Positions 38,759 to 60,924 of a stretch of 64,000 nt of DNA are shown piece by piece. The stretch's first letter is position 1. Every line of letters begins with the position of its first letter. This DNA comes from a virus. The translations under genes were made by a program, and so were the position numbers. Location: positions 251,488 through 315,487 of IMG/VR virus record IMGVR_UViG_3300027896_005002. One strand, given 5' to 3'. The notes beneath the pieces are model-generated. The model saw only the letters and a program-made list of their open reading frames with translations. It was not told the DNA's origin and did not search any database.

Positions 38759-39550
38759 TTAAGTAAAGAATGAATTTGAAGTACCTACAACGGTTTGGCT
38801 TTTCCGAATGATTGACTGACTGACGAGACCCATTGATTCTCGAATATCGTGAGCAGAGCTACCGGATGTTTTAGCATTAGGAAATCCCATTGCCTTTGCA
38901 TCCGCATCACCACTTCCGAATCCGACATAGACAAAGTAGAACATTTCCGTTTTGTGGCAATCATCTACAAGCACTTTAACATCACTTGCTTTAAAATCTT
39001 GTGAATCATTGTCCTGGCCATCCGTCATTACTGCAATAATGCATTTTGTGCGAATTCCATTATCATTCAACGATTTTGCATAAACACGCATACCAGTAAT
39101 TGCACTGACAATTGTGTCAAACAATCGCGTTGAATCACCATTGGCAATATATTGACTGCCAATTTTGCCGATGTCGCCGACCTTTTTGAAACCGTATAAA
39201 ATGTCTTCCTTTGTGGCAAACGTCCTGGTACTTACAAGCATTGAATCTGCTTGTTTTGATTTCCTCATTGCATCGATGACCAATTCGTCAAATGAATCAC
39301 GAACCGTTAATTCATTGCCTTTCATTGAAAATGACGCATCCAATATAAGAGATGCAATTGTTACTGTGTCTGTCACCAGATCTTCAGCACCAACGCCCGT
39401 GCAACCTATTATATTGGTGTCATCCAAACTGTTAATCATCACATTTCCAGCCAATGAATTAATTGGATTGACAGCAGATGCACTTGCACTCTGAATAAGG
39501 TTTTGTATTGTAGATAAGTCTACTACCGGATTATTTTGGCTTCCAGCCAT
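38759..39550 (-). CDS. von Willebrand factor A (vWA) domain protein (TerY-like)
   Basis: MIDAS motif LILDASFSMKG (DxSxS) and downstream AVMTDGQDND (TDG). Visibly higher GC than neighbours. Confidence 0.65.
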   Translation of the reverse strand: MAGSQNNPVVDLSTIQNLIQSASASAVNPINSLAGNVMINSLDDTNIIGCTGVGAEDLVTDTVTIASLILDASFSMKGNELTVRDSFDELVIDAMRKSKQADSMLVSTRTFATKEDILYGFKKVGDIGKIGSQYIANGDSTRLFDTIVSAITGMRVYAKSLNDNGIRTKCIIAVMTDGQDNDSQDFKASDVKVLVDDCHKTEMFYFVYVGFGSGDADAKAMGFPNAKTSGSSAHDIRESMGLVSQSIIRKSQTVVGTSNSFFT

Positions 39551-43261: not shown

Positions 43262-43322
43262 TATATTCTCCGGGTTAAAACGAAAAGTCCAGATTTTATA
43301 CTGGACTTTTCTTAAAAATGGA

Positions 43323-44129
43323 TTATGCTGCTTTTGCTTTTGCTTTATCCTTCGCCATATATCGTTGCATCCTAACGGCAACATCCTTAATACCATAAAT
43401 GTCCAATTGAAAATCATTCAATAATTCAACTGGATCGATGCCTAAAATGGCAACAGTATAAAGTATTGATGGCATAATAGTGCCGATGTCTTTTATGTAA
43501 AAATCAATATTGTTTTGGCCGTAAAATTGACGTTTAATGTCTTCTTCCATTTTACCAGTTCGCATAAAAGCCAAAGAACACCACGCCACATGATTTCCAT
43601 GAAGAATCGACATCATTTCTATCGAATTAACGTTCTTTATGGCAACTATCAACATGTCAATGACATCCTGTTCGGAATATAGAATGCTTGACTTATTGCA
43701 AAGAAAAGCACTTATACTTTTTGCCAATGACATTGTTGTTGCCTGATTACTTACTTTTGCACCATGCGGCAATTCATCGAATGTGACAAAATTGGGATTA
43801 AACACTTTGTCTGCGGGATTTGCATCGGTTGAAATTCCTAATTGTAATCTTGCTTCAGGCGACAGGTCCTTTACATAAACTGCATTTTGTTCTTTGCCAG
43901 TAAATGTATAGGATTTCATTCCTGCACCTGCATAATCAATTTTGAGAGTTTTTCCTACCGGAAAAAAACCCTTAAATGGATTATGTAGATCATCCATTTT
44001 AGCTTTTTGTCCTTCATACCAAATATCATGAGGACAACGAGCCGGAATATCAACCGTCTCTAACAAATACAAATAAACTGCACTACCACTGCCAGGTATA
44101 GTGGTAGGTTTATCAATCGGATACCTCAT
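43323..44129 (-). CDS. Hypothetical protein adjacent to phosphatase
   Basis: 268 aa, Lys/Ala-rich C-terminal tail (KDKAKAKAA); no family recognised. Confidence 0.3.
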   Translation of the reverse strand: MRYPIDKPTTIPGSGSAVYLYLLETVDIPARCPHDIWYEGQKAKMDDLHNPFKGFFPVGKTLKIDYAGAGMKSYTFTGKEQNAVYVKDLSPEARLQLGISTDANPADKVFNPNFVTFDELPHGAKVSNQATTMSLAKSISAFLCNKSSILYSEQDVIDMLIVAIKNVNSIEMMSILHGNHVAWCSLAFMRTGKMEEDIKRQFYGQNNIDFYIKDIGTIMPSILYTVAILGIDPVELLNDFQLDIYGIKDVAVRMQRYMAKDKAKAKAA

Positions 44130-44147: not shown

Positions 44148-44816
44148 CTACTTTATGATTTCACCTGTTTTGTAAGACCAAAACAATATGTCTAAGTGGT
44201 CAATATTTATATCAATTTGATTTGCAAAGTTCATCATACGTCGCTCAATCTCAATGTATTCTTTACCATTTCTTGGCTTTGAAACTTTGACTTTAAATAA
44301 ATTTAACATAGAAATGATATGTTTATCTAAAATAGCAAAGCCTTGATATCCTACATTTCGTAAAAAATGACTACTTTCTTTAAAACCTATTCCTAAAATG
44401 TTTAATTTAAGAAATTCACGAAGAGCAAATTGATCATTAATGATTTCAAATATTCGGAATAAATTTAATCCAAAACTACGTTGAAGATAATCTCTAGATT
44501 CAATTATATATTTTGCTCTTACGTTTGGAAATCGATGGTTATGTTTTAATTTATTTTTGATGGTTTCTTCATTATCGGTTATAATAGTGTCACCGAGAAT
44601 ATCAATACATCTTAGCGCCATTTTTGCACTGGCATTTGCGGTAAGAATACAAAAAACTAATTCTTTGAAAAGTGCTAACCTATCGCCACTAGAACCAATT
44701 GCTTGGAATTCACTTAGTCGATGTTCAATTTGAGGCTGGATAAGATTATAATAATCTTTTAGACTACTTATAGAATCAATTACTTTTGAATTATCAACTT
44801 TTATAATGTCGATCAC
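44148..44816 (-). CDS. HhH-GPD DNA glycosylase, Ogg2-like (8-oxoguanine DNA glycosylase / AP lyase)
   Basis: ELVFCILTANASAK and ILGIGFKESSHFLRNVGYQGFAILDKHI match the Ogg2 signature (GxGxKxASHFLRNxGxxDxAIxDRHI) with the catalytic Lys and Asp. Confidence 0.55.
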   Translation of the reverse strand: MIDIIKVDNSKVIDSISSLKDYYNLIQPQIEHRLSEFQAIGSSGDRLALFKELVFCILTANASAKMALRCIDILGDTIITDNEETIKNKLKHNHRFPNVRAKYIIESRDYLQRSFGLNLFRIFEIINDQFALREFLKLNILGIGFKESSHFLRNVGYQGFAILDKHIISMLNLFKVKVSKPRNGKEYIEIERRMMNFANQIDINIDHLDILFWSYKTGEIIK

Positions 44817-45622
44817 AACAAATTTGTAACTTCTCTAACAAAATGTTGAAAATCAGATCGTTCTCTGATTTTAGGATCCCAAGCCATGCCCATTTCCTTA
44901 AGATCATATTGCTTGGTAATTGTTGCCCCTTCTTTATCTGGTTCTTTAGCCAATAACCAAACTGTATCTGCAATAGCCATTGCACTTTCAAGATCATGAC
45001 TAACCAAAATCAATGTATTATATTCGTTTAACACGGAAATCTTGAGTAATAATTCAATCACTTTGTCTTTCATCAATGTATCTAAACCAGAAAACGGCTC
45101 ATCCAAAAGAATGAATTTATTATCCGTCAGAATTTGCTGAATAATGCTTACGCGTTGTTTTTGTCCGCCCGAAAGTTGTGCAGGATATTTATTTAATTGT
45201 TCTGAAAGACCAAAATCAGTAGCATATTTACGTATTATAGAATCAGCAGTTGTACTATCGTATTTTTTTCCACAATGAGACAATCCTCTTTTGAGATTGT
45301 TGTAAATTGTTCTGTGATCAAAAAGTATATAATTTTGTGGAATAATACCCACTTCGCCTGGAGTAACTAAATGCTGATCTTCTGTTATAAGAACGCGACC
45401 TGTTGTTGGCCTCATTAATCCAGAAAGAATTTTAAATAATTGAGTTTTTCCCAAACCACTGCGACCAACAAGAGCAACGACTTGTCCTTGATCAACATTG
45501 GCTCGAACCACATCCCTAATTTCAAAATTGATGTCACGGAGAATTTGACGACCCGTATATTGAAGGCTAACATCTTTTGCCGACAACAGAACATTTTTTA
45601 ATTGGTAATCTATTTTATTCAT
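44813..45622 (-). CDS. ABC transporter ATP-binding protein
   Basis: Walker A GRSGLGKTQ, ABC signature LSGGQKQRV, Walker B ILLDEPFSGLD. Start placed at Met 45622 (ATGA overlap with the permease stop) instead of the track start 45670. Confidence 0.8.
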   Translation of the reverse strand: MNKIDYQLKNVLLSAKDVSLQYTGRQILRDINFEIRDVVRANVDQGQVVALVGRSGLGKTQLFKILSGLMRPTTGRVLITEDQHLVTPGEVGIIPQNYILFDHRTIYNNLKRGLSHCGKKYDSTTADSIIRKYATDFGLSEQLNKYPAQLSGGQKQRVSIIQQILTDNKFILLDEPFSGLDTLMKDKVIELLLKISVLNEYNTLILVSHDLESAMAIADTVWLLAKEPDKEGATITKQYDLKEMGMAWDPKIRERSDFQHFVREVTNLL

Positions 45623-46488
45623 TTGTTCACCTGTAATGTTGAATAAAGAAATAAACAACGACGTAACCATCTTAAACTTATGTCAATTAAAACACCAAAA
45701 AAGAATATAATCATAAGAACCGCAAACACTCTTGGTAAATTCAAAATCTTATTGGCCTTTATGATCATTGTGCCTAAACCACCTTCTGCCATACTTAAAC
45801 CTTCAACCATTGTAATCATTAACCAAGATATTGCAAAGTTTTGTCGAATGACTTCAACAACCATATCAAGTTGTCCCAAAATAATTACTTCATATAATGT
45901 TTCATATTTACCAAAGCGAAGTGTTTTACATAAATCATATTGTTGATTGTTAATTTGTGCCAAAATTGATGTTAATGAAGTAATAAAAAATGGTACAATA
46001 CCAAAAATCAAAAGACTGATTTTTAATTGACTCGTATCTTTTGACATCAAAGTAAATAGGAATATTAAACCATTAAGTGTTAAATATCGACATTGAGTCA
46101 TAAAATTTGTAATTGGTCGAATTATAGGAATGACTGATGCATATGTAAATATTAATGCAATTACCATTGAATAAAGCATTGCTTTAATTGTTAGCATCAA
46201 ACTGCTAAACAAATTATCAATGAAGCCTTGTTCAGTGACAATTGCAGCAATATTCTGAGCCACAATAAATGGTCCAGGTATTAAACTTTCTTTGCCGCAA
46301 ATTAAATGCCAACAAAGAAAAGCTAATATTACTTCAAAAACAATAACAATAGTTTTTGCTCGTTTTGGAAGTGTCGCAAAAGGTTCAAACATTGGAATTT
46401 TCATTTTTATTTTTCCCTTAAAAAAGAAAGACTTGGAAAATGTAAAGAGATCAACCACGCCAGTAGCCAAGCCTCTAAACATCTCCAA
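45619..46488 (-). CDS. ABC transporter permease
   Basis: 289 aa with multiple hydrophobic helices, directly upstream of the ATPase and downstream of the binding protein. Confidence 0.6.
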   Translation of the reverse strand: MEMFRGLATGVVDLFTFSKSFFFKGKIKMKIPMFEPFATLPKRAKTIVIVFEVILAFLCWHLICGKESLIPGPFIVAQNIAAIVTEQGFIDNLFSSLMLTIKAMLYSMVIALIFTYASVIPIIRPITNFMTQCRYLTLNGLIFLFTLMSKDTSQLKISLLIFGIVPFFITSLTSILAQINNQQYDLCKTLRFGKYETLYEVIILGQLDMVVEVIRQNFAISWLMITMVEGLSMAEGGLGTMIIKANKILNLPRVFAVLMIIFFFGVLIDISLRWLRRCLFLYSTLQVNK

Positions 46489-46498
46489 GTCCTATTAA

Positions 46499-48262
46499 TT
46501 AATTACCAAGGACAATTTCTACTCGACGATTCTTTGCACGACCTGCAGCACTTGAATTATCCGCTATTGGTCTTGTATCACCAAAACCTTGAGCCTCAAG
46601 AGCTTTGGGCTTCATTCCTTTTGTTGTTAGTAAATAATCCTTTACTGCATTTGCGCGATTATCGGAAAGTTCAAGATTTTTCTCAGTATTTCCGGTATTA
46701 TCGGTATGACCATAAATACCCAACTTACAACCTTCTGCAACCATTGCAGAGTTGAATATTTCATCAAGTACTCTGTAGGATTCAGGTCTGATTTTGGAAC
46801 TTCCAACCTCAAACTGAATTTGATATGATTTTGATGAAACTTTAGTAGTGATTTGATCGGAATAATTTACGGCTAAAGCTTTTCCTTCCATTAATTCCGG
46901 ATGGTTTGCAACCACAGACATTAGGAATGATTTATCAATTACCTTGGAATAATCCGGATAGGTTGGCATTATTTCCGGATACATTTTGCTTAAAATAGTT
47001 CCAAAGGTATTGTAAACGATTTTGTATCGATCGATACCATCTTTTCCTAAGCCGAACATATTGGCAGCATCCGAAAGATTAAAAGCCATTGAACCGCCAA
47101 GATCAACTTCGAAATTTTGAACATCTTTTTGTTTCATTCCATTATAATATTTAAGCCAATATGTTGGATCCTGTTCATTATAGACCTTGGCTGATACTTT
47201 TGCCGCAAACATTTTTGCATCGCTGAAAGACCGAACTTGATCACCTGCAGTTCCCAATGCTGCAATCAAACTTTCAATATCTGATCGATGATCATTGGCA
47301 AATTTCTTGATTGTGATTGTGATGTTCGGCATTTGCGATGCATATTGTTTTGTGGAAGCAATAGTAACCAATCCACCTTTTTTGGTTGCTACATTGACAT
47401 CACCAGGTGTCCAAGTGGCAACAGCATCAACATTAACCGAAGTGTCTTTGTTTGTCTTCTTACCATTAATAACAAGTTTGCGTTTGTCTTTGATTTCCGA
47501 GATGTACTTGTTTGGAGCGTCCAGAAAATCACTGGCAGCAATAATATTAATGGCATTATAGTCATAAGTGGTTTCATCCGGATTGACTGAAAGACCATTG
47601 TCACCAGCCCATTTAAGAAGAATGTTAATATCACCGTCACGAAGAACGCCGGCAACGCATTTTCCGATAGCAGCTTTGGGATTTGTTTTCCATTCTGGAG
47701 GTCCCATAATTTTATCTTCACCATAGGATTTTCCCATTGGATAGAATCCCATCGGTTGATAGTCAGGACCGAGAGGTGCTAATTCCTTACATAAACCTTG
47801 GAAAAATGCCGGCATTCCGTCACCCATAAATGATGCAAATACAGCATTAGTTGATGGATTATTTTTGTAATCCTGTGCAAATTTAACAACATCCGCACAT
47901 GCTTTACTGCAATCATCCTGACGGATAATATTAATTGTAAGTCCAGCTTTTTCGATCAATGATCCTTTTGTTGTAACCGGACCGCCATTGGCATACATAA
48001 GAGCGAATTGCGAATTCCATGCCATGATTTTCCAATCAACTTTTACCGCACCATTACCACTTTCCTGATCTGAAGGCATTGCAAGTTTTTGTGCGTTGCC
48101 ACTGAACGATGCTTCCGGAGCATCAGGTAATGTTACCTTTCCGACGACTGCGGCAGCTTTTGCAACCTTTGGTAATTTGTCATACCATAAGGTTTTGCCA
48201 CCAAGAATGGCACCAATGACAATGATGCCCAACATTAATTGACCTCTAGCCTTGATCTTCAT
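46499..48262 (-). CDS. ABC substrate-binding protein (NMT1/SsuA/TauA-like) fused to a C-terminal OmpA/MotB peptidoglycan-binding domain
   Basis: N-terminal signal/anchor, large periplasmic domain, and C-terminal NTGNTEKNLELSDNRANAVKDYL...GFGDTRPIADNSS...RRVEIV, the OmpA-C signature. Higher GC than the flanks. Confidence 0.6.
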   Translation of the reverse strand: MKIKARGQLMLGIIVIGAILGGKTLWYDKLPKVAKAAAVVGKVTLPDAPEASFSGNAQKLAMPSDQESGNGAVKVDWKIMAWNSQFALMYANGGPVTTKGSLIEKAGLTINIIRQDDCSKACADVVKFAQDYKNNPSTNAVFASFMGDGMPAFFQGLCKELAPLGPDYQPMGFYPMGKSYGEDKIMGPPEWKTNPKAAIGKCVAGVLRDGDINILLKWAGDNGLSVNPDETTYDYNAINIIAASDFLDAPNKYISEIKDKRKLVINGKKTNKDTSVNVDAVATWTPGDVNVATKKGGLVTIASTKQYASQMPNITITIKKFANDHRSDIESLIAALGTAGDQVRSFSDAKMFAAKVSAKVYNEQDPTYWLKYYNGMKQKDVQNFEVDLGGSMAFNLSDAANMFGLGKDGIDRYKIVYNTFGTILSKMYPEIMPTYPDYSKVIDKSFLMSVVANHPELMEGKALAVNYSDQITTKVSSKSYQIQFEVGSSKIRPESYRVLDEIFNSAMVAEGCKLGIYGHTDNTGNTEKNLELSDNRANAVKDYLLTTKGMKPKALEAQGFGDTRPIADNSSAAGRAKNRRVEIVLGN

Positions 48263-50004: not shown

Positions 50005-51180
50005 CTACATTATTCCTAATGTTTGTTTACAAAGATTAACTGTTTTAATATTACCAGTATATTTTTTAGCGTCATCTGATAATTTTATTGTGTCTATCCA
50101 TTCATTACCAAAATTACATGCTATTAATTTAATGACTATATTAAGTGGTTTTACACCAACATCGTTTGTAAACCATGTACCAATACCATATCGATCAATT
50201 GCTTTATCTTTGCAAGCTTCATGAATAACATTAATCTGATCCATGGAATGAAGATTGTCCGAAAACATTAACATTTTACTGAGAGGATTTATTCTAAGTT
50301 TTTGATAATGTGCTATTGCTTTATCTAAAAAAATCAATGGTTGTCCACTATCTTGACGCATACCATCATAAAGCTTTGCATACTTTGTATTAAAAGATTT
50401 AAGAAAAACATCGGTGGTAAAAGTATCAGGTAATGCTGTTCCAAGATCACCATTAAATACTTCAACCCATGCTTCATTGGCCATATCATTGGCCATTTTA
50501 AATCCATATAAAGCTGCATGAAGCATATACCATTCATGAGCAACTGTTCCCATAGGAATAAGATTATGTAACATCGCAAAATGAATATTACTTGTTCCTA
50601 ACATATGACCATTGCCGTATTTTTTCAAATGTGCTATGGTTTCATTTTGAACGTGATAAGCAAATCGTCTTCGAGATCCAAATTCTGAATAGTAAATATT
50701 CATATTAGCTAATTTTTCTGCTTTGTCCCGATTATTTTGTTCCCGTTTTTCTATACTGTATATATCATTTTTAATTTCTTTACACGTCATTCTATAATAA
50801 AGTTCACTTATTGTACTCATTAATGGTACTTCCCATAAAACAGTTCTGTAAGCAGGTCCAATAATATCAACACTTAAATCTGGACCTTTTTGTTCTATTT
50901 TAACTTCACTAGGATCAAATTGATATCCTGCAAGAAAATCTAAATAAACGGGATTTAAATAATAACATCGTTCTCGTAAAAAATCTTTTTCATCATTACT
51001 AAGTTTCATTGTTCTAAAACCATCAACAAGTTTGCGTAATTGTTCAGCAAATCCGTCAGGAAATTCTCTCTTGTCACGATTTATAAACTTATAATGATTA
51101 AAAACTTTTGGATATTTTTGACAAATAGCCATGTCCATGGTTAATTTATATAAATCAGTATCTAGCATTGATGAAATCAT
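50005..51180 (-). CDS. pncB: Nicotinate phosphoribosyltransferase
   Basis: N-terminal MLDTDLYKLTMDMAI (NAPRTase hallmark LDTDxYKxTM), plus GTSN and GTVAHEW motifs. Confidence 0.8.
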   Translation of the reverse strand: MISSMLDTDLYKLTMDMAICQKYPKVFNHYKFINRDKREFPDGFAEQLRKLVDGFRTMKLSNDEKDFLRERCYYLNPVYLDFLAGYQFDPSEVKIEQKGPDLSVDIIGPAYRTVLWEVPLMSTISELYYRMTCKEIKNDIYSIEKREQNNRDKAEKLANMNIYYSEFGSRRRFAYHVQNETIAHLKKYGNGHMLGTSNIHFAMLHNLIPMGTVAHEWYMLHAALYGFKMANDMANEAWVEVFNGDLGTALPDTFTTDVFLKSFNTKYAKLYDGMRQDSGQPLIFLDKAIAHYQKLRINPLSKMLMFSDNLHSMDQINVIHEACKDKAIDRYGIGTWFTNDVGVKPLNIVIKLIACNFGNEWIDTIKLSDDAKKYTGNIKTVNLCKQTLGIM

Positions 51181-51941
51181 AGTATCTCCCTTTTAACTGT
51201 GTATCCACTTGAATACTTTCTTTCACCTCTAATCACTTTATAAATATTTTTAATATTATGTTCTTTACAAAAAGCACGCAAATTATCTGTGGTAAATTCT
51301 TTACCATCAATATTTGTCAAAATAAAAATCCTATAATTTCTATTTTTTCCTAACATTGAATTTCGCATTTTCTCTCTTGTAATAAATGTTATGACTCTAT
51401 TTTTTCGTGCTTTACTTAAATTTCTTTTGTGATTATCGGAAAATTTTATTCCTTTTTTAATGTTACTTAATAAATCTTTAGTCTCTTTAGAATGATGTCC
51501 CCATGATATACCTTTTTTATTTTTGCTGATTCTTTCTCTAGTCTCATTAGAAATAACCTTACCACTTGCACCATCTCCACCATCAGAAAGATTAGTTAAA
51601 GGTCCAACATTTAAATTCAATCTACCAATTGTTTTAATTAGTAATGTTTCTAAATCAAAAGCTTCTTCTTCACTTAAATTTTCTTTTATTTTTAAAATTA
51701 TTGGTTCTTTTCCTATTTGTAAAATATTACGAATAGTCTGTAACCTTAATAACTTAATTTCATTTATAAATAGTTTTTGATTTTTTTTACTCTTTTTTAA
51801 TTGATGTAAATAACGTTTTCTTCGACCTTTTCCAACATAAAATGGCTCATATTCAAATTCAAAATCTTTATACTTATATATACCTTTTTTTCTTATATCT
51901 AAATAAATATAAACATAAAAATCTTTTAACTCGTCATTCAT
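51177..51941 (-). CDS. GIY-YIG homing endonuclease with NUMOD3-like repeats
   Basis: FYVYIYLDIRKKGIYKYKDFEFEYEPFYVGKGRRKRY carries GIY...YVG and the Arg; C-terminal repeats SNETRERISKNKKG / SDNHKRNLSKARKN resemble NUMOD3 DNA-binding modules. Confidence 0.7.
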   Translation of the reverse strand: MNDELKDFYVYIYLDIRKKGIYKYKDFEFEYEPFYVGKGRRKRYLHQLKKSKKNQKLFINEIKLLRLQTIRNILQIGKEPIILKIKENLSEEEAFDLETLLIKTIGRLNLNVGPLTNLSDGGDGASGKVISNETRERISKNKKGISWGHHSKETKDLLSNIKKGIKFSDNHKRNLSKARKNRVITFITREKMRNSMLGKNRNYRIFILTNIDGKEFTTDNLRAFCKEHNIKNIYKVIRGERKYSSGYTVKREIL

Positions 51942-51944
51942 AAT

Positions 51945-52808
51945 TTACATTATTTTTGCTTTAGAATCCCAATCAGTATATAATGAATTATCCGGTCTGT
52001 AAACTAAAGATTTTATACTTGAAGCAGTATTATTTTGTGTACAAGTTGAAGTTGATACAGTAACACCATTAATATCATAGGGTTGACCATTTCCAAACCA
52101 ATTCAATTTATCGCCATCACTTTCAACAACAATATCATCCAACCATTGAGTAATTTGATCTTGAGTTATTCTATTGTCATAACACCAACTCAAAAAATTA
52201 TCCATGTGCTTTACATTTTTTGGTATCCATAATTCTCTAAAAACTATAGATGTTACACCAAGTGATTTGTAATGCATAATATAACTAATCATTTGATTTT
52301 TTGAATTTATTCCGGCCTTGCATACAACACAACTTAATCTAACTGCAAGACCTAAATTAGTTAACTTTTTAAATAATTGAACATAATCCAATTCCAAACC
52401 ATACAATTCCTGACATTTATCAGTATTGTAATGCGGTACTGTCATTGTTAAATTAGTGATATAAGGAGCCAACATTTGGGAAAAATCCCGGCCAAAAGAA
52501 GGCATTGCCAGAATTTCAGAACCATTTGTATGAAGATCAATTTGACCGAAGTATTTTTTGCAAAGCCATAAAATATTTTCAATATTTGTCCAACTGCCTA
52601 ACAATGTTTCTCCAGAAGATGTTATAATCGCAGTCGAAGCATTTCCGTCTTTTGCGTATTTAATGCATTTTTCCAGTTTGGGTAAATTAATTCCAGGTTT
52701 TTTCAAATCTTTACGAATGTCTGCTGTCATAGCAGCTATGCAATATTTACATTTTGCATTACATCCGACTTCTTGAGGAACAATAGAAATAGAACTTATA
52801 TGCATCAT
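51945..52808 (-). CDS. Radical SAM enzyme, substrate unknown
   Basis: VGCNAKCKYCIA (CxxxCxxC) and SSGETLL (GGE-like SAM motif). Confidence 0.6.
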   Translation of the reverse strand: MMHISSISIVPQEVGCNAKCKYCIAAMTADIRKDLKKPGINLPKLEKCIKYAKDGNASTAIITSSGETLLGSWTNIENILWLCKKYFGQIDLHTNGSEILAMPSFGRDFSQMLAPYITNLTMTVPHYNTDKCQELYGLELDYVQLFKKLTNLGLAVRLSCVVCKAGINSKNQMISYIMHYKSLGVTSIVFRELWIPKNVKHMDNFLSWCYDNRITQDQITQWLDDIVVESDGDKLNWFGNGQPYDINGVTVSTSTCTQNNTASSIKSLVYRPDNSLYTDWDSKAKIM

Positions 52809-54412
52809 TTTCCTTGGAATTGGTTAAACAAATTAGCAATCGGCATCCTACGACCGATAATAAGATCCCTTTCTGATATGATTAATCCTGGAGCAGCTTG
52901 ATGTCTTTTATATTCATTTTTATCAACCATTTGAATTACTCTAGCTACAGTTTTATAATCAAACCCATTGTCGATGATATCATCAGCCGACATATTCTTT
53001 TCTATGTATCTTTTTAAAATACCGTCCAAAATATCGTAGGGCGGCAGTGAATCTGTGTCTTTCTGCTCAGGTTTTAGTTCTGCTGAAGGAGGTTTTGTAA
53101 TTGTATTTTTAGGTATTTGCAAATAAAGTTCACATATTTTATAAATAGTAGTTTTATAGACATCTGAAATTACAGATAAACCACCACACATATCACCATA
53201 AAGTGTACAATAACCTACTGACATTTCTGATTTATTTCCAGTAGATAATAATAATCGACCTTCATCATTTGAAACAGCCATTAATAAACAACCACGAATT
53301 CGAGCTTGAAGATTTTGTTCCGTAACATCCGATTTATATATTCCACCCAATGCAATATTATATACTTGTAATATTTGCTCAATATTTACTATTTGTGACG
53401 TCATCCCTAAATTATTAACTAAATCTTGAGCATCTGTTATGCTTCCCTGACTTGAATATGCCGACGGCATCAATAAACCATGTACATTTAAAGCACCTAA
53501 AGCTTCAACAGCAAGTGCAGCAGTCAAAGCAGAATCAACACCGCCAGATAATCCTAATACTGCTTTTTCGAATTTAGTTTTATAAAAATAATCACTAATT
53601 CCCAAAACCAAAGCCTTTTTGATTTGAACAGTGTCGCTTGGATATTCATTTACTGTGCCTTCGATATGTTTCAGTTGATGGTCTTCAAATTGTACCATAA
53701 CATTTGCTTCTGTAAATTGAGGTGCAATCATTTCAGCAATATCACCATTAACAATCATACTGGCACCATCAAAAATCAATCCATCCTGGCTACCGACCTG
53801 ATTGACATAGAGAATTGATTTGCCAACTTCCGTACTTCGTTTGGTAAGGACTTGTTTTCTTATTCCAACTTTACCTTTTGAAAAAGGTGATGCATTTAAT
53901 GAGATGATGAGATCGGTATCCTTATACATTGATACTGGTTTTTTATCATAATCATCATCCCAAGCATCTTCACAAATAATCAAACCGATTTTCGTTCCTT
54001 TTACGTCTAAAATCAATTTGGACGTTCCAGGAGTAAAATATCGCCGTTCATCAAATACAACTTTGTTCGGCAAAAGTTGCTTATAATATCGATTCACTTT
54101 ACCATTTTTAATCGCACTTGCAACATTATATAAATGAAGCCCAACCTTGACAACATGGCCTACAATAATAACTAAATTACTATAAGCTTTGGATAATACA
54201 CAAACATCGTCAAAAGTATTAGTATTGGCGTCAATGAAAGCCTGATTATATAAAAGATCTTTTTGTGGATATCCGGTTATTGTAGCTTCTGGGAAAACAA
54301 CAATATCTGCATTCTTATTTGCTGCAATCATCACACTGGATTTTATTTTATTTAAATTTTGTATAAAATTACCAACAGAAGTATTGATTTGTGCCACCAT
54401 TATTTTTAACAT
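52805..54412 (-). CDS. nadE: Glutamine-dependent NAD+ synthetase (nitrilase/CN-hydrolase domain plus NadE)
   Basis: PP-loop GLSGGVDSAL in the C-terminal synthetase domain; the N-terminal domain has the CN-hydrolase layout (...VFPE...CEDAWD...). Confidence 0.8.
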   Translation of the reverse strand: MLKIMVAQINTSVGNFIQNLNKIKSSVMIAANKNADIVVFPEATITGYPQKDLLYNQAFIDANTNTFDDVCVLSKAYSNLVIIVGHVVKVGLHLYNVASAIKNGKVNRYYKQLLPNKVVFDERRYFTPGTSKLILDVKGTKIGLIICEDAWDDDYDKKPVSMYKDTDLIISLNASPFSKGKVGIRKQVLTKRSTEVGKSILYVNQVGSQDGLIFDGASMIVNGDIAEMIAPQFTEANVMVQFEDHQLKHIEGTVNEYPSDTVQIKKALVLGISDYFYKTKFEKAVLGLSGGVDSALTAALAVEALGALNVHGLLMPSAYSSQGSITDAQDLVNNLGMTSQIVNIEQILQVYNIALGGIYKSDVTEQNLQARIRGCLLMAVSNDEGRLLLSTGNKSEMSVGYCTLYGDMCGGLSVISDVYKTTIYKICELYLQIPKNTITKPPSAELKPEQKDTDSLPPYDILDGILKRYIEKNMSADDIIDNGFDYKTVARVIQMVDKNEYKRHQAAPGLIISERDLIIGRRMPIANLFNQFQGK

Positions 54413-54436
54413 AACATTCTCCTTTAATATTCAACT

Positions 54437-55087
54437 TTAAAAATTCCATGAATGATACCACCACAAACCAATTGAATAATCAGGCTTATTTGTCACATCA
54501 TCCATTATAATACCAAGAGAAAATGAATTATTGCTGAGATTTATACCAATACCCGGAACTAATCTAAGCGTTTGAGTGTGTTGTTTAAATCCAGTAATAG
54601 GAATAATATCACAGAAAATATCGAATTTACTATTAAATTTGTATCCTGGTGTAATACATGTCCATAAAGAAAGATCATTAGAATTATATGTAATATTCAA
54701 TCCTGTGTTATTTTGCATGTACCAATGAGTAGTTTCAAAAAACATGCCATGATATTGTAATGAAATATATTCATCATTAGCCAATATTGCTGCAAGATTA
54801 TTTTTTGTAATTGCATATCGAACCATTCCCCACCAAGAATTATATGAAAAATCCGGAATAAAAGTTATTGATCCAACATTAGCCCAGACATCAATATTAT
54901 CGGTAATGCCTACTGCAGCAAGTAAATCGGCACCAACTGTTGTTGAAGATTTAAAATTATAGACGTAGGCATATGGGTTTGCTACAATTGTTCTTTTCCC
55001 TGACATCATGGGAAAACAAGAATAACTATACGGAAAAGCATAAAATACGATCGCGCAAACAATCATTGACATTAAAATCTTTTTCAT
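54437..55087 (-). CDS. Outer-membrane beta-barrel-like protein (signal peptide, C-terminal aromatic residue)
   Basis: Start placed at MKKILMSMIVCAIVFYAF (signal-like); alternating aromatic/hydrophilic strands; ends ...WWYHSWNF with a terminal Phe, as in OMP barrels. Confidence 0.4.
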   Translation of the reverse strand: MKKILMSMIVCAIVFYAFPYSYSCFPMMSGKRTIVANPYAYVYNFKSSTTVGADLLAAVGITDNIDVWANVGSITFIPDFSYNSWWGMVRYAITKNNLAAILANDEYISLQYHGMFFETTHWYMQNNTGLNITYNSNDLSLWTCITPGYKFNSKFDIFCDIIPITGFKQHTQTLRLVPGIGINLSNNSFSLGIIMDDVTNKPDYSIGLWWYHSWNF

Positions 55088-55158
55088 TTTAAAAATTCTT
55101 TCTAAAAAGTCTGACAATTCTAACTCATATAAATATAGTCGCAAAAATTATCAATGAT

Positions 55159-55440
55159 TCAATTAAAATGCTTAACATCTTTTAAAAACTTCGTAAATAA
55201 TGTAGTAAATAATTCATCATGTTCAATTGGCGTAGCAAAAGGCATGTATAAACGGTTATTATTAGGAGTACAAAATGAAAATGAAAATCTATGATCTGAA
55301 TAAACAACGCAACGAATATTTTGCTCACCTTTAAATTCAAACCATGATTCTTCTAATGTCATCTCTCTGATAAAGCCGTGATCGTACGGCATGAATTTCC
55401 GTTCAATCATTTTTTTTATTAACAATTCTTTATTAATCAA
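55159..55440 (-). CDS. Hypothetical protein
   Basis: 93 aa ORF. Confidence 0.3.
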   Translation of the reverse strand: MINKELLIKKMIERKFMPYDHGFIREMTLEESWFEFKGEQNIRCVVYSDHRFSFSFCTPNNNRLYMPFATPIEHDELFTTLFTKFLKDVKHFN

Positions 55441-55442
55441 AA

Positions 55443-55802
55443 TTAAAAATCCTCAATAGTTGTAACAACTCTATTCTTTACAATAAGCCTATATTTACCA
55501 CATGGAATTTTACCAGATTTTAAATGATCAATAAGTGTTACATTTTTTTCTGACAGAATTTCATTTGAAATTGCAGCAATGTCAATTTTCAATACTCTTT
55601 CGCAATATCGCAATAATGCGTGTTCTGATACTACTGGTTTTCTATTCGAAATTTCTCTAATTTCCCGTCTTGTTTTTTCTAATTGTCGAGTTTTATCAAT
55701 GAGTTGTTGCCTCAATCGATCAAAATCTTTTTGAAGAAAAAGCAAATCTGATTCTAATTGAGTTTGTATAACTTGAAGCCGTTTTAAATCTTGTGCATCC
55801 AT
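55443..55802 (-). CDS. Hypothetical coiled-coil protein
   Basis: 119 aa ORF. Confidence 0.3.
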   Translation of the reverse strand: MDAQDLKRLQVIQTQLESDLLFLQKDFDRLRQQLIDKTRQLEKTRREIREISNRKPVVSEHALLRYCERVLKIDIAAISNEILSEKNVTLIDHLKSGKIPCGKYRLIVKNRVVTTIEDF

Positions 55803-56365
55803 TATAACATTTTATTTTTACAGAAAAATTGTATAAAAGAAACATATTTTGACAAAAGAAGAGTTTTCATGTCATGATGAGTCATTGAAATAAATTCATC
55901 AGCAGGCATTATTATTCTTTCAATTTTCTCACCTTCTTCTTCAAGTCCAAAAATTGTCCCATCCTTTAATTGATTTTGTTCAATAATTACATAAGCTAAA
56001 TATGCACATGATGTCAGTATACCTGGTGCTGCTGCAACCGGCTGTCCATTATTTAGTAAATTGACTTGTTCTATTGTAACAGAAGCTTTAATTTCTTCCC
56101 ATAATTCTTTTACAATTAATTCTTTCACACCTATTTTGGTATCAAATAAACCAGCAGGCACTTCGACTAAAAGTGGCGTTCCTGATGATATTTTTTCTCT
56201 CAAAGCTGTCCGTTCTTGTTTTACTAAAACAACACTATCTCGATCCCTTAAATAAACCAAAACAGCCACACAATCAGGTACTTCTACTACTTCTTTACCT
56301 GATATATCTATAAATACCTTTGAGAATCCAGAATGTAGCATTTTTTTAACATATTCATTTTTCAT
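55802..56365 (-). CDS. Nudix hydrolase, ADP-ribose pyrophosphatase-like (degenerate Nudix box)
   Basis: LLVEVPAGLFDTKIGVKELIVKELWEEIKA resembles the NudF region ...AGxLDxGE....A.RELxEExG; the final Gly of the box is not conserved. Confidence 0.45.
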   Translation of the reverse strand: MKNEYVKKMLHSGFSKVFIDISGKEVVEVPDCVAVLVYLRDRDSVVLVKQERTALREKISSGTPLLVEVPAGLFDTKIGVKELIVKELWEEIKASVTIEQVNLLNNGQPVAAAPGILTSCAYLAYVIIEQNQLKDGTIFGLEEEGEKIERIIMPADEFISMTHHDMKTLLLSKYVSFIQFFCKNKML

Positions 56366-56533: not shown

Positions 56534-56869
56534 TCATTTACATAATCCAGCTTCATGTAGTATTTGTTTATGAGCTACAGAAATATATGGCTTTAAATAA
56601 CCGGCCTTTAAATTTCCAGATGTAGTCAACCTAATTACTAAAAGTGTTCCACAATATACACACCAATAATTTGTCGAAGACAATTTAAACCATTCATGTT
56701 TTTTATGTTGTAAATCTCGTATATTGGTAGGATTAAAAAAAGTTTGAAAAAAATCGTTGTTTATTTGATACTTATAATAAACAACACCACAATATTGACA
56801 CCATTGAAAGGTAGTATTTTCAATTTTATTAAATCGATGTTTACACACCTTCGACTTCATTTTGTTCAA
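56534..56869 (-). CDS. Hypothetical zinc-ribbon protein
   Basis: 111 aa with two CxxC pairs. Confidence 0.3.
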   Translation of the reverse strand: MNKMKSKVCKHRFNKIENTTFQWCQYCGVVYYKYQINNDFFQTFFNPTNIRDLQHKKHEWFKLSSTNYWCVYCGTLLVIRLTTSGNLKAGYLKPYISVAHKQILHEAGLCK

Positions 56870-58127
56870 ATTGTTCTTTAAAAGTTATTGCATAATCTTT
56901 AAGTGAAGTATTAAACATTGCCTTCATCAGTTTCTTACCTGTCATATAATCATGGATTGCAACTTTTTGTTCCTCGGGTAATTTTCTATCACTGTTCTTC
57001 CAAAAAAATCTATTCATTGATACTTTTACCCAACCTTTATCATCCAAAGTAATTTGGCCATCATCAGTTTTAAATCCAAACTTCTTACATAAATCATCTG
57101 CAAAATATCTGTGATTTAAATTAGAACAACCATAAAAGTGACCATCAAGATCTATATAACCCGATTGCCATTTTGTCTTTCTTATATCTTCACTGTTAAT
57201 GGTCTCTCTTTTACTATCCATCATCATGTTTTTGACAAAATTTTCAACACCTAAATCAACACCAGAAAGCCCCATTACATCAGCTAAAGTTTTTTCAATA
57301 GATAATCGTGACAATAAAGCAGTACTTGACATATCTGACTGCTGTGCAAATTGTACAAGTTGTACAAGTTGATCATGGTCGTCTTCTATTGAACACAAAT
57401 TCCTAATTTCATGATCACTATAAATATACACATGATCAGGACCATACTTTCTGTCAAAATACACTTTTACAGGCATTAGATAAGAAATAATATTTTCATA
57501 AGCTGAATAACATTTTTGAAGAGAACTAATGCTGTCTTTGTCTTTGCCAGTAGGTCCTTCACGTAAAGGAATTTCATCTGTAGGCAGCATGTCTAATGAT
57601 ATTTCAACTGCAAATTGATTTGAAATGTTCCTAATATCTAACCAATATTTATTTACTTCTTTGCGAATAGAATTCTCTGTTTTGTTTTCTTCAACTGCTC
57701 TTATCCATAAATATGCATTACTTTGACAACCTTCAAAGGTAGAAGGAAATCGTCGATATAATTGAAATTGTCGCAAATACAATTCAGATACAAATAATTT
57801 TGTTTTTTTCAATAACACAACATCTTTCCAGCTATCTAATAGCGGAAAAGATTTATGATTGTCTTTACCACTTTGATCAGGGTCCCAATAATGACGATTA
57901 TCTTTTACAATATCAAATCCATCAGGTGCAGCCCAACCTGTAAATTTTTTCTTACCTGAAACTATTGGAATAAAATAATCATTCAAACTTTTAAGAGAGA
58001 TATGATCAGGAAATGTATCAATCCATACTTTAATGGCTTTAACTTCATTTCCTTCAACCCATAAATGCCGTAACATCCATGTAAACCATTTACCTTCAAC
58101 ATTAAACTGAACTTTAATTGTCGCCAT
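56841..58127 (-). CDS. Hypothetical protein (428 aa) between Nudix and ligase genes
   Basis: No family recognised by eye. Confidence 0.3.
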   Translation of the reverse strand: MATIKVQFNVEGKWFTWMLRHLWVEGNEVKAIKVWIDTFPDHISLKSLNDYFIPIVSGKKKFTGWAAPDGFDIVKDNRHYWDPDQSGKDNHKSFPLLDSWKDVVLLKKTKLFVSELYLRQFQLYRRFPSTFEGCQSNAYLWIRAVEENKTENSIRKEVNKYWLDIRNISNQFAVEISLDMLPTDEIPLREGPTGKDKDSISSLQKCYSAYENIISYLMPVKVYFDRKYGPDHVYIYSDHEIRNLCSIEDDHDQLVQLVQFAQQSDMSSTALLSRLSIEKTLADVMGLSGVDLGVENFVKNMMMDSKRETINSEDIRKTKWQSGYIDLDGHFYGCSNLNHRYFADDLCKKFGFKTDDGQITLDDKGWVKVSMNRFFWKNSDRKLPEEQKVAIHDYMTGKKLMKAMFNTSLKDYAITFKEQFEQNEVEGV

Positions 58128-58592: not shown

Positions 58593-58979
58593 TTAGTAGC
58601 AATTAGTAGCAAATATTTTTGTAATATCATCAAAATATTTGATAATTTCAGAAGGTAATAATCCGCATTCAACAGCTCGTTTACCGTTTCTGGCAATTCG
58701 AAAAATTTCAGCATCTTTATCAATAAAGAAACGTTTTCTTTTTTTAGATTTAGATTTTGAATGTTCTTGCGAATCTATAAAATCAGCAACTTGTCGTAAA
58801 CAATTTGGTCTCCAAAATGTTAAATCATCACTAATAAGACATAATAATTTCCGGCGACCAACTCGTTCTTTATGTATATGTCCAATTCCTCCTCCAGAAT
58901 AACCTGTAACTGGAAATCCTTTTGCATCAATTCCAATTTTTAATTTTTTCATCTTAGTCCACCATTGCCCAAAATTCAT
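58593..58979 (-). CDS. Hypothetical basic protein
   Basis: 128 aa ORF overlapping the ligA start by 26 nt. Confidence 0.25.
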   Translation of the reverse strand: MNFGQWWTKMKKLKIGIDAKGFPVTGYSGGGIGHIHKERVGRRKLLCLISDDLTFWRPNCLRQVADFIDSQEHSKSKSKKRKRFFIDKDAEIFRIARNGKRAVECGLLPSEIIKYFDDITKIFATNCY

Positions 58980-60924
58980 CTTCTGATATCATTTTAATTC
59001 CAAGTGTTTGTGCCTTTGCTATCTTATTGCTATTGGATTTTATAGCCACAAGAAAATTCAAATCCTTATTCACTCGACTTATTGTTCCTCCATGAGCCTG
59101 TACCAATTCATACCATTCTTCTCGTTTATATGGCTTATTGGTCTTTGGATTTACCTTTGAAAAAGCACCAGTAACCTGAAATGATTTTCCTTGTAATTTA
59201 TTGGATTCAGTTTTTACAGCTTGAGCTTTCCTAATCTTAATTCCACTTGCCATCAATTTTTCAATAAGTGGTTGTCGTTGTTCCAGTCCTTCAACGATTT
59301 CTTTCGCTCTTGATGAACCAATTCCAGAAATCTTGGCTAAATCATCAACTGTAACCTCTTCCATTAATGTTCCTAAATCATATTCATCAGCTATCAATTC
59401 AGCCATAGTTTCACCAAGAGAAGGAATTGCCAAAGCACATAAAAAAGTTACAAGATCCATTTCTTTACATCTATCCAATCCATCGGTAATTTTCTTTGCT
59501 GATTTTTCTCCCATTCGATCTAAACCAGCGATATTATTCGCCGTAAGAATAAAGAAATCTGCAGGATCCTTAATAATATTCTTATCAAACAATTGTTGAA
59601 TTGTACTTTCACCCAAACTATCCATACCCATCCGCTTTTTAAGTACATCAACAAAATGCCTTATTTTTCGAAATTCTTTTCCTTCACATTCATTACTTGT
59701 GCATATGAGACTTACACCTTCGGAACCATCATCCTTTTTTACCTTAGTAACCGGTCCATGACACATCGGACATTCGGTAGGAATTTTATACGGCTTACCA
59801 GCAGACTGTATAACCTCCGTAACTTTTGGAATTATTTCACCTGCTTTAATCACCAATATTGTATCACCAATACCAACCTTCAATCTTTCAATTTCATCGA
59901 AATTATGAAGCGATGCAGCTTTTACCATCGATCCATCAATATTCACAGGTTCAATTACTGCATTTGGTGTTATAACTCCTGTTCGACCAACTGTTAAAAT
60001 AATATCTCTAAGAGTAGTTGCGACGCCTCTTGCATCAAATTTAAAGGCAATTTGTGCTTTTGGGTCACCACCAGGATGAAGTCCAAGATCTTTTTGTTTT
60101 TGAATACTATTAAGTTTTATCACCAAACCATCAATATTATATGGCAATTTTTCTCTATCTGATGTCGTATATTGTTCTCGAACTCTGATGACTTCCTGAG
60201 GGGAAATTAATTTATAATTAGCAGTTACCATTTTTAAAGTATGTGACAAATAATCCATTTTTTCTGTTTCAAAACTAAATGTCACATCATCCGAAACTAT
60301 ATCATAAACTACAATACAAAGCATCTCACAACCTTCGCCATCAAACCTTTTACAAATACCACTTGCCGCATTTCTAGGATTTGCATATTTTTTATCAGTG
60401 GTTTGTAATGCGTTGATTGTTTCAAAATCCTTCTTTAATAAAATAATTTCACCACGAACACTAGCCTTTATCTTCTCAGGAATATCCTTCTGAACATATT
60501 TCATTCTCAAAACATTAATGGTAATATCTTCACCGGTCCGACCATCACCGCGAGTTAATCCCTGAACTAATTTACCATTATCATAAATTAACTCCACTGA
60601 CAATCCATCAAATTTATCCTCGGTAACACAAACCCTTCCAACAACACCTGTCCTTTTACACCAATCATTAAATTCGGGAACTGACATCGCATTTTGAAGG
60701 GAAAACATTTTCATCAAATGAGGAGCTTTTTGCCAACCGGAATCTTTTGATGTAGGAGCACCGGTTTCTAATAATACTTGACTATTTGAATCTAACTGTC
60801 TTAATCTTTCCATTAAAGCATCAAAGGCCGCATCTGAAATCCTCGGTTGTTTATTATAATAAAGATATCGATGCAGCCTAATATCGCTTTCTAATCTGGC
60901 AATCTCTGGTTTGTTATTTTTCAT
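58954..60924 (-). CDS. ligA: NAD+-dependent DNA ligase
   Basis: Adenylation motif CVTEDKFDGLSVELIY (KxDG), GLTRGDGRTGEDIT, Zn-finger cysteines (CPMCHG...C), HhH region and C-terminal BRCT-like domain. Length 656 aa is typical of LigA. Confidence 0.85.
   Translation of the reverse strand: MKNNKPEIARLESDIRLHRYLYYNKQPRISDAAFDALMERLRQLDSNSQVLLETGAPTSKDSGWQKAPHLMKMFSLQNAMSVPEFNDWCKRTGVVGRVCVTEDKFDGLSVELIYDNGKLVQGLTRGDGRTGEDITINVLRMKYVQKDIPEKIKASVRGEIILLKKDFETINALQTTDKKYANPRNAASGICKRFDGEGCEMLCIVVYDIVSDDVTFSFETEKMDYLSHTLKMVTANYKLISPQEVIRVREQYTTSDREKLPYNIDGLVIKLNSIQKQKDLGLHPGGDPKAQIAFKFDARGVATTLRDIILTVGRTGVITPNAVIEPVNIDGSMVKAASLHNFDEIERLKVGIGDTILVIKAGEIIPKVTEVIQSAGKPYKIPTECPMCHGPVTKVKKDDGSEGVSLICTSNECEGKEFRKIRHFVDVLKKRMGMDSLGESTIQQLFDKNIIKDPADFFILTANNIAGLDRMGEKSAKKITDGLDRCKEMDLVTFLCALAIPSLGETMAELIADEYDLGTLMEEVTVDDLAKISGIGSSRAKEIVEGLEQRQPLIEKLMASGIKIRKAQAVKTESNKLQGKSFQVTGAFSKVNPKTNKPYKREEWYELVQAHGGTISRVNKDLNFLVAIKSNSNKIAKAQTLGIKMISEDEFWAMVD

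Follow-up and report, generated by a model that had tools for sequence, protein, structure and literature searches.

The 64,000-nucleotide stretch of DNA analysed here, referred to below as the window, spans positions 251,488 to 315,487 of the IMG/VR virus record IMGVR_UViG_3300027896_005002. It carries genes of a predicted Preiss-Handler-type salvage route for nicotinamide adenine dinucleotide (NAD+), together with a four-gene cassette in which a nicotinamidase-like hydrolase is joined to a Ser/Thr kinase, a PP2C-family phosphatase, and a von Willebrand factor A (vWA) protein. Exact-protein matching located the window at about 251.4 to 315.4 kb of a 415,903-bp metagenomic contig (ENA ERZ27247850, k141_2484546), and a 39-kb JGI contig also covers part of it; GenBank phages contain no DNA near-identical to it. 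We treat the source as a huge uncultured phage with a genome of at least 416 kb. The G+C content of the window is about 30%, and nearly every gene lies on the minus strand, including all those of the salvage route and of the cassette.

Two genes of the route, called unambiguous in a first-pass annotation made from the DNA letters, retain that standing, as both products score above curated equivalog cut-offs. The product of 50005..51180 (minus strand, 391 aa) is PncB, a nicotinate phosphoribosyltransferase (NAPRTase), by NCBIfam, Pfam, and PDB comparison. It scores 399.3 bits against TIGR01514 (cut-off 269.55) and 407.6 bits against NF003704 (cut-off 379), carries both Pfam domains, NAPRTase_N and NAPRTase, and aligns end to end with solved NAPRTases, the top PDB match being 2im5 (E 6e-97). 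Its GTVAHEW segment pairs with GTHPHEW in 2im5 and GTMAHEW in 1yir, so the conserved His of the GT.AHEW motif, which we take to be the autophosphorylated His of NAPRTases, is kept. The product of 52805..54412 (minus strand, 535 aa) is NadE, a glutamine-dependent NAD+ synthetase, with 633.5 bits against NF010588 (cut-off 479) and two Pfam domains, CN_hydrolase and NAD_synthase. Alignment to its PDB match 5kha (E 2e-121) revealed that the CN-hydrolase Glu (FPE), Lys, and Cys (ICED) are retained, as is the SGGxDS P-loop (LSGGVDSAL). Catalytic residues are thereby preserved in both enzymes.

Entry into the route is assigned to the product of 39572..40528 (minus strand), a cysteine hydrolase of 318 aa whose PncA-like family is "long" (about 310 aa), on the basis of its residues, fold, and synteny. 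The match to Pfam Isochorismatase is marginal (29.2 bits against a cut-off of 27). Every full-length sequence among 166 homologues keeps the catalytic triad Asp-56, Lys-200, and Cys-250 and the metal site Asp-99, His-101, and His-166. Furthermore, the 18 best PDB fold matches of an AlphaFold model of the protein (pLDDT 94) are all nicotinamidases, with target-normalised TM-scores of 0.74 to 0.79. The best-supported reading is a nicotinamidase-like enzyme predicted to deamidate nicotinamide, which agrees with the isochorismatase-family hydrolase with PncA-like residues proposed earlier. The protein shares with PncA and yeast Pnc1 the isochorismatase-like fold, the Asp-Lys-Cys triad, and the Asp-His-His metal site. 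In contrast to these enzymes, it has about 100 additional residues, with an N-terminal extension and an insertion of about 60 residues that separates the DxH motif from the third metal ligand; identity to them is just 15–20%, and its score falls under the curated PncA cut-off. Among GenBank phages, the long protein was found in four unannotated uncultured records only.

The first-pass annotation missed that this gene belongs to a conserved four-gene cassette. Positions 38759–43417 are co-directional, and the nicotinamidase-like gene sits between the kinase and vWA genes. The vWA gene (38759..39550, minus strand) encodes a stand-alone protein of 263 aa with a weak match to Pfam VWA and an intact metal-ion-dependent adhesion site (MIDAS), whose residues Asp-71, Ser-73, Ser-75 (D-x-S-x-S), Thr-141, and Asp-177 are kept in 118–121 of 121 homologues. 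The kinase gene (40580..42439, minus strand) encodes 619 aa comprising a Ser/Thr kinase domain, a Zn ribbon, and a beta-rich C-terminal domain. Its Pfam Pkinase score of 31.5 bits is marginally below the cut-off of 31.7, and PDB kinases are matched at E 5e-5; Lys-35, Asp-132, Asn-137, and Asp-151 are conserved in all aligned members, and the CxxC...CxxC ribbon in most. Judged by these residues, the kinase and the vWA protein look active. The phosphatase (42440..43417, minus strand) matches Pfam PP2C_2 with 40.3 bits against a cut-off of 24 and ends in a Cys-rich motif; a public gene call gives it 273 aa, so its true start is probably downstream of the longest-frame start. A HIGH motif within this open reading frame (ORF) was considered as a nicotinate-mononucleotide adenylyltransferase (NMNAT) signature and rejected, the protein being PP2C.

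The precedent for such an arrangement is the TerY-P triad of Anantharaman et al. (2012), composed of a TerY-like vWA protein, a PP2C phosphatase, and a Ser/Thr kinase-Zn ribbon protein, as summarised in PMC11090510. The same text, with PMC7159879 for comparison, describes TerY-P as a putative phosphorylation switch tied to restriction systems and related modules as stand-alone antiphage systems. The window has the architecture that defines the triad: adjacent, co-directional genes for a vWA protein with intact MIDAS, a PP2C phosphatase, and an active-looking kinase fused to a Zn ribbon. On sequence grounds the cassette is thus read as a TerY-P-like triad plus one enzyme. Unlike TerY-P, it has the nicotinamidase-like enzyme as a constant fourth member and occurs mostly in phages, beside NAD+ and ADP-ribose genes, and no link to a Ter gene or restriction module was seen. 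In searches of PADLOC (E ≤ 0.001), a library whose range of TerY-P models is unconfirmed, the vWA and PP2C proteins had no match and the kinase matched only PD-T4-6, weakly. The label "vWA ternary system" was considered and rejected for the cassette, as that name denotes MoxR-vWA-VMAP systems (PMC7159879). Our literature search found no paper linking a TerY-P triad with a nicotinamidase; a nicotinamidase within a kinase/phosphatase/vWA cassette is found in no paper searched, and we regard the association as new and widespread.

To describe the context in phages, we pooled the window with three metagenomic relatives and the best 80 of the 123 IMG/VR relatives of the nicotinamidase-like protein, and clustered them at 85% identity into 38 dereplicated lineages. 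The vWA, kinase, and PP2C genes each accompany the nicotinamidase-like gene in 34/38 lineages, all co-directional, and the vWA gene directly adjoins it in 34. Two gene orders occur, PP2C-kinase-PncA-vWA, as in the window, or PncA-vWA-PP2C-kinase, which retains the vWA-PP2C-kinase order of TerY-P. NAD+ genes are frequent neighbours: NadE in 14 lineages, PncB in 11, NadD or NadM in 5, and a macro domain in 7, at least one NAD+-synthesis gene (NadE, PncB, or NadD/NadM) lying within 10 kb in 18 of the 38. For scale, PncB occurs in 13 and NadE in 54 of 50,697 GenBank phage records. Genes nearest to the phage cassettes further encode NUDIX proteins (3), a PARP catalytic domain, an ADP-ribosylglycohydrolase, and the NAD+-dependent ligase LigA, which is near the cassette in several lineages.

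The family extends to cellular genomes, with at least 585 species represented, mainly Chloroflexota, Myxococcota, and Acidobacteriota. Among the best 80 cellular genomes (species), a partner vWA gene was found in 41, adjoining the PncA-like gene, a kinase gene in 23, and a PP2C gene in 15; PncA-like, vWA, and kinase genes occur together in 20. The window vWA protein is 30% identical to the partner gene product in a Chloroflexota genome. The most frequent neighbour of the bacterial cassettes is a small His_Phos_1 histidine phosphatase (9 of 77 neighbour ORFs scanned), and AAA_16 appears in four; no TIR or SIR2 NADase gene is among their 25 most frequent neighbour families. Short minus-strand ORFs recur directly upstream of bacterial cassettes (L107–L174) and may be His_Phos_1 genes, and an ORF of about 1,670 aa is present in several of these loci. 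The related phage locus L012 has a His_Phos_1 gene too, as does the flank of the window about 7 kb upstream (L010).

Comparison of the window with its close phage relatives bears on whether these genes form a unit. The locus L012 reads PncB-NadE-Ogg-PP2C-kinase-PncA-vWA, L018 reads PncB-NadE-PP2C-kinase-PncA-vWA-macro, and L013 reads NadE-Ogg-PP2C-kinase-PncA-vWA-macro. From these gene orders, the contiguous block PncB-NadE-Ogg-PP2C-kinase-nicotinamidase-vWA-macro appears to be the ancestral arrangement, which insertions have opened in the window: a radical-SAM-like gene and a GIY-YIG endonuclease between NadE and PncB, and two genes and an ABC importer between PncB and Ogg. The macro-domain gene directly follows the vWA gene in L013, L018, and L019 and lies about 7 kb from it in the window, while Ogg is placed between NadE and PP2C in L012 and L013. 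A more distant locus, L017, contains a nicotinamidase-like gene, NadE, a NadD-like gene, and PncB, i.e., a full Preiss-Handler set. The syntenic position of NadE is occupied by three non-orthologous types, the 535-aa glutamine-dependent enzyme of the window and, in the relatives L012 and L013, a 641-aa form and a 294-aa NH3-dependent enzyme. This suggests repeated gene replacement under selection for function. All genes named in the first-pass annotation are present where it placed them, with a correction to the proposed cluster at 50005–56365: besides PncB, NadE, and a Nudix protein, that interval holds unrelated or inserted genes, namely two small ORFs, an ORFan, a radical-SAM-like ORF, and a GIY-YIG homing endonuclease. 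The salvage parts are scattered over about 30 kb in this genome and contiguous in relatives.

Three further proteins handle NAD+ or ADP-ribose by prediction, each as first annotated. The Nudix protein (55802..56365, minus strand, 187 aa) is a divergent hydrolase of the ADP-sugar/ADP-ribose pyrophosphatase type that exceeds the Pfam NUDIX gathering score (28.7 bits against 21.1) and falls below the curated cut-offs of TIGR00052 (35.8 bits against 79.55) and NF008003 (27.2 against 248). It is YffH/AdpP- and NudF-like, with weak PDB matches to NUDT14 and ADPRase. Its box reads G-LFDTK-I-GVKELIV-KELWEEIKA, which does not conform to the canonical GX5EX7REUXEEXGU; among 260 representatives of the family, the three box glutamates of ExxEE, Glu-87, Glu-90, and Glu-91, and the downstream Glu-146 are invariant. 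In two homologues (P0205, P0237), an N-terminal cytidylyltransferase-like domain is fused to the Nudix domain, giving a NadM-Nudix architecture. The macro-domain protein (31468..31965, minus strand, 165 aa) matches the solved macro domains 5e3b (E 7.6e-38), 2fg1 (E 9e-35), and 2afc (E 1e-34), has no Pfam match at E < 0.01, and shows weak DarG-like matches; by this similarity it is a probable ADP-ribosyl hydrolase. LigA (58954..60924, minus strand, 656 aa) is a consumer of NAD+ with the full domain set (Pfam DNA_ligase_aden, OB, HhH, and BRCT).

The step between PncB and NadE is missing from the 84 kb examined; the first-pass annotation had not recognised a NadD either. A scan of the window for the NadD motifs HxGH and ISSTxxR was negative, as was tblastn of the window with the LR756500 NadM-Nudix protein, the LR756501 NadR, and E. 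coli NadD. Precomputed Pfam assignments for the window and 10 kb on each side (84 kb) contained no PF01467, NadD, NadM, or NadR. In a pattern-limited scan of IMG/VR, canonical NadD was absent from the two closest large contigs (330 and 424 kb) and present on some related contigs. Neither ORF previously named as a possible NadD/NadM fits that role: 51945..52808 is radical-SAM-like and lacks the HxGH motif, and the product of 56841..58127 (428 aa) is mostly helical, with no fold match and no NAD linkage in its relatives. The latter is conserved in huge phages, and several of the 44 proteins in its family come from very large contigs. Of the three phage genes (pncB, nadD, and nadE) that, with a genome above 200 kb, mark a complete Preiss-Handler pathway or an "NAD-jumbo phage", the 84 kb hold pncB and nadE and lack nadD.

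Several other genes lie between PncB and the Nudix gene. The GIY-YIG/NUMOD3 homing endonuclease (51177..51941, minus strand; Pfam LEM-3_GIY-YIG 46.6 bits plus NUMOD3, and a PHROG homing endonuclease match) is an insertion outside the pathway, being missing in L012, where PncB adjoins NadE. The radical-SAM-like protein (51945..52808, minus strand, 287 aa) has a CNAKCKYC motif (CxxxCxxC), a Pfam Radical_SAM match under the cut-off (E 8e-4), and weak viperin, NrdG, PflA, and MoaA-like similarity. PADLOC gives it a weak match to pVip, the prokaryotic viperins (E 4e-7), and the one protein that it matches in the phage database bears the annotation of a molybdenum cofactor biosynthesis enzyme. The start of the gene overlaps the stop codon of NadE; no equivalently placed gene occurs in the relatives, and the radical SAM gene that LR756500 carries close to PncB is not related to it. 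Located 24 nt upstream of NadE, the ORFan (54437..55144, minus strand, 235 aa) has no Pfam, NCBIfam, PHROG, or phage-database match and only itself as a homologue among 5.8 billion protein clusters. On inspection of its sequence, the protein has a signal-like hydrophobic N-terminal segment and ends in ...WNF, as outer-membrane beta-barrels typically do, and may be such a barrel; its membership of the module is uncertain. Assignment to a known outer-membrane channel was rejected, as there are zero homologues to align or model with. In an unrelated huge phage, LR756501 (L004), the NAD cluster contains PnuC and a 718-aa ORF that looks outer-membrane-receptor-like by inspection of its sequence.

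On the other side of PncB, an ABC importer (44813..48262, minus strand) comprises an ATPase (44813–45670), a permease (45619–46488), and a 587-aa protein (46499–48262). Pfam ABC_tran and BPD_transp_1 are matched, the permease being weakly TauC/SsuC/SaoP-like. The 587-aa protein is membrane-anchored and carries an OmpA-like domain of the peptidoglycan-binding type at residues 484–579; its N-terminal 400 aa may form a solute-binding domain. Compared with L012, the importer is an insertion in the stretch from PncB to Ogg, and whether it belongs to the module is uncertain; niacin as its substrate would fit, although this is pure speculation. Next to the importer lies an Ogg-type 8-oxoguanine DNA glycosylase (44148..44816, minus strand; Pfam Ogg-HhH 170 bits).

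Taken together, the enzyme identities, active-site conservation, synteny, and co-occurrence observed here lead us to consider it probable that the window carries an NAD+/ADP-ribose metabolic island of a huge phage, a Preiss-Handler-type salvage route without its middle step whose entry is probably under phospho-switch control. In the proposed route, the 318-aa enzyme would convert nicotinamide to nicotinate, and PncB would use nicotinate and phosphoribosyl pyrophosphate (PRPP), with ATP, to form nicotinate mononucleotide (NaMN). Conversion of NaMN to nicotinate adenine dinucleotide (NaAD) would most likely fall to the essential NadD of the host, or to a phage gene elsewhere in the genome, and the glutamine-dependent NadE would complete NAD+. 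The enzyme assignments thus support the near-complete path from nicotinamide through nicotinate and NaMN to NAD+, lacking NadD, that had been proposed from the letters. In parallel, the macro-domain protein would remove ADP-ribosyl groups and the Nudix enzyme would then split ADP-ribose into AMP and ribose-5-phosphate, with LigA acting as a phage consumer of NAD+. The constant coupling of the nicotinamidase-like enzyme with the kinase, phosphatase, and vWA protein suggests, from gene context, an entry step that is regulated or scaffolded; nicotinamide entry is probably controlled by, or physically coupled to, this phospho-switch.

Several observations weigh against this interpretation. The nicotinamidase-like protein misses the curated PncA hidden Markov model (NF008623, 25.4 bits against 174, over an N-terminal stretch only), and we know of no assayed member of the long PncA-like family. 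The Nudix box is degenerate: it has lost the first Glu and carries Lys in place of both the Arg and the last Gly. With no NadD/NMNAT in the 84 kb examined, the route that the phage encodes is incomplete, and unrelated insertions separate its parts, which extend over about 30 kb. Finally, NAD genes lie near just 7/80 of the bacterial copies, with or without the cassette, so the primary role of the cassette may lie outside salvage.

The enzyme set can be compared with two groups of phage systems. Li et al. (2024, Microbiome, PMC11662467) describe "NAD-jumbo phages" that include Preiss-Handler pncB-nadD-nadE clusters, e.g., Kuafu_71, and NAD+-dependent ligases, with a proposed counter-defence role, purely in silico; they argue for NAD+ supply to phage consumers and complementarity with host pathways. 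Annotated PncB and NAD synthetase genes are also present in Atu_ph07, and PncB and/or NadE in the huge phages LR7565xx. The window resembles the NAD-jumbo phages in its huge genome, clustered pncB and nadE, and NAD+-dependent ligase; the proposed use is likewise independent synthesis of NAD+, alongside NAD+ consumers and counter-defence. It differs in having no nadD in or near the cluster (84 kb) and in placing a nicotinamidase step in a kinase/phosphatase/vWA cassette, a placement that term searches of that paper did not find.

The second group consists of the NAD+ reconstitution pathways shown by experiment, namely NARP1 (Adps, which is Prs-like, with Namat), NARP2 (Nampt with Nmnat, as in Vibrio phage KVP40), and NARP3 (PnuC with NadR; PMC13464706). 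Like these, the window would encode the rebuilding of NAD+ from breakdown products or precursors, and NARP1 and NARP2 also begin at nicotinamide. In addition, Nmnat of the KVP40 type carries a fused Nudix domain, an architecture shared by two homologues of the window Nudix protein. None of the three pathways uses PncA, PncB, or NadE. In contrast to NARP1–3, family scans of the window ORFs found no Nampt/Namat, Prs-like Adps, Nmnat, NadR, or PnuC, and the route would pass through nicotinate, NaMN, and NaAD and thus need NadE. The earlier remark that NAD+ replenishment is known only with different enzyme sets holds for these experimentally shown counter-defence pathways; it is outdated for gene sets predicted in silico, as Preiss-Handler sets in jumbo phages have already been described (PMC11662467).

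What the island would do for the phage is a separate question, and two compatible uses compete for the answer. The first, a realistic possibility in our judgement even if it falls short of an even chance, is a general auxiliary metabolic module that supplies NAD+ for LigA in concert with Ogg, UDG, PolX, and FEN, possibly in salvage-poor hosts and with no need for immunity. The window encodes a nearly full set of base-excision repair enzymes: UDG (12464–13123), a 5'-3' exonuclease/FEN (16009–16920), PolX-PHP (27270–28934), Ogg (44148–44816), and the NAD+-dependent ligase (58954–60924). Ogg belongs to the conserved block, LigA accompanies the cassette in several lineages, and Li et al. argue for this use, including complementarity with host pathways (PMC11662467). 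However, the product of LigA is nicotinamide mononucleotide rather than nicotinamide, so a nicotinamidase would be no direct recycler. Supply alone also leaves unexplained the coupling to the kinase, phosphatase, and vWA protein and the macro, PARP, and ADP-ribosylglycohydrolase neighbours.

Counter-defence, the purpose favoured in the first-pass annotation, is a use that we put forward tentatively. NAD+ would be rebuilt from the nicotinamide (and ADP-ribose) released by NADases such as those of Thoeris, SIR2-type, and DSR systems, making the island a Preiss-Handler analogue of NARP1–3, for which NAD+ reconstitution as counter-defence is established. This is consistent with a route that begins at the NADase product nicotinamide, with the macro and Nudix proteins handling the other product class, and with the PARP and ADP-ribosylglycohydrolase genes beside the cassette in other phages. 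The non-orthologous NadE types at one position suggest sustained selection for function. On the other hand, no paper that we found ties PncA, PncB, or NadE to defence evasion by experiment, and many metabolic genes of jumbo phages have no link to defence. The route would cost three to four ATP equivalents and need host NadD and PRPP, which would make it slower than the one- or two-step NARP1 and NARP2. General NAD+ supply and escape from NAD+-depleting immunity are not mutually exclusive, and one island could serve both.

A more specific version of the counter-defence proposal combines these elements. Here the cassette would gate nicotinamide entry by phosphorylation and, with PncB, NadE, and the host NadD, would constitute a fourth, Preiss-Handler-type NAD+ reconstitution pathway that is switched on during infection against NAD+-depleting immunity, the bacterial copies serving a related conflict function that senses NAD+ or nicotinamide. 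We regard this combination as unlikely in its entirety.

A reading that we consider less probable again makes the cassette a conflict or signalling system in its own right, such as one for superinfection exclusion or defence, with the adjacency of PncB and NadE secondary. In variants of this explanation, nicotinamide would be denied to the Nampt/Namat-based NAD+ reconstitution of competitors, or the inhibition of NAD+-consuming enzymes by nicotinamide would be relieved. About half of the phage lineages have the cassette without NAD genes, including a 43-member cluster of near-identical loci, of which one matches a human faecal phage record, and the PncA-like, vWA, and kinase genes also stand together in 20/80 bacterial genomes. 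PMC11090510 reports TerY-P-like modules as stand-alone antiphage systems and restriction partners, and AAA_16/STAND-like giant proteins lie beside bacterial cassettes. Against autonomy, NAD+-synthesis genes within 10 kb in 18/38 phage lineages are far above the GenBank background, and PncA-PncB(-NadE) sets occur without the cassette in L076, L092, and L133. PADLOC models gave no match for the vWA or PP2C protein and a weak PD-T4-6 match for the kinase, and no toxic effector is evident. We retain the predicted metabolic island, with a probably switch-controlled entry, as the preferred reading.

Lastly, the DNA could be non-viral, a piece of a cellular chromosome or a giant plasmid in which the NAD genes are plain housekeeping, as the lack of capsid, portal, or terminase genes within the window and its many cell-like functions (GroES, NusG, trigger factor, ABC transporter, tRNAs) might suggest, but this is very improbable given the low G+C content of about 30%, the placement of almost all genes on one strand, and the phage hallmarks that follow. 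PHROG matches in the window include a phage DNA polymerase, helicase, primase, T4-type RNA ligase, and tail-fibre-like protein, and the nearest relatives of the helicase are in Bacillus phage G and other jumbo phages. Homing endonucleases and one intein are present, relatives of the window occur in IMG/VR, and a phage portal protein adjoins one related cassette. No ribosomal or core cellular gene was seen in the 84 kb.

Other features of the window accompany this setting. DNA polymerase III alpha is split into two parts (4288–7269 and 9810–11660, minus strand) about 2.5 kb apart, and in the public gene call an intein (Pfam Intein_splicing) is found in the larger one; directly upstream of the window is a RecA gene carrying a LAGLIDADG insert (L010). 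Two tRNA-Cys(GCA) genes (61225–61292 and 62858–62948, minus strand) are separated by 1.6 kb, the second being 91 nt long with its anticodon at position 37, which may reflect an insertion or intron. These tRNAs were the sole result of the RNA search, which found no riboswitch, and a scan for promoters and terminators was uninformative, giving the same counts as shuffled sequence. RNA-repair-like genes (2163–2591, 3144–3518, 32404–33564, and 61598–62215, minus strand) comprise an AAA_33 kinase-like protein, a cyclic-phosphate-processing receiver (cREC_REC), a T4 Rnl1-like RNA ligase, and a second RNA ligase-family protein, a set that could answer tRNA-cleaving defences. The cell-like helpers are GroES (Cpn10; 29678–30016) and a NusG-like protein (21768–22286), with trigger factor directly outside the window (L011, 4087–5367). 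A low-complexity protein with SGYSG-type repeats (35197–35619, minus strand) adjoins the tail-fibre-like gene (33961–35178).

NAD+ depletion is a major anti-phage strategy of bacteria. Three phage pathways of reconstitution have been shown experimentally, and the deamidated, Preiss-Handler route has so far been inferred for phages from gene lists only. The enzyme set of the window is by itself ordinary for jumbo phages; the novelty lies in its association with the cassette. A huge-phage lineage that carries a nicotinamidase, PncB, and NadE and lacks NadD would be expected to depend on a single host enzyme and to be vulnerable at that point. For the poorly understood TerY-P-type triads, the nicotinamidase-like protein provides a candidate enzymatic partner whose activity is easily assayed. 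Finally, the entry enzyme is coupled to the triad in 34/38 phage lineages and, among bacteria, in at least 20 species, which suggests regulated rather than constitutive NAD+ salvage by phages.

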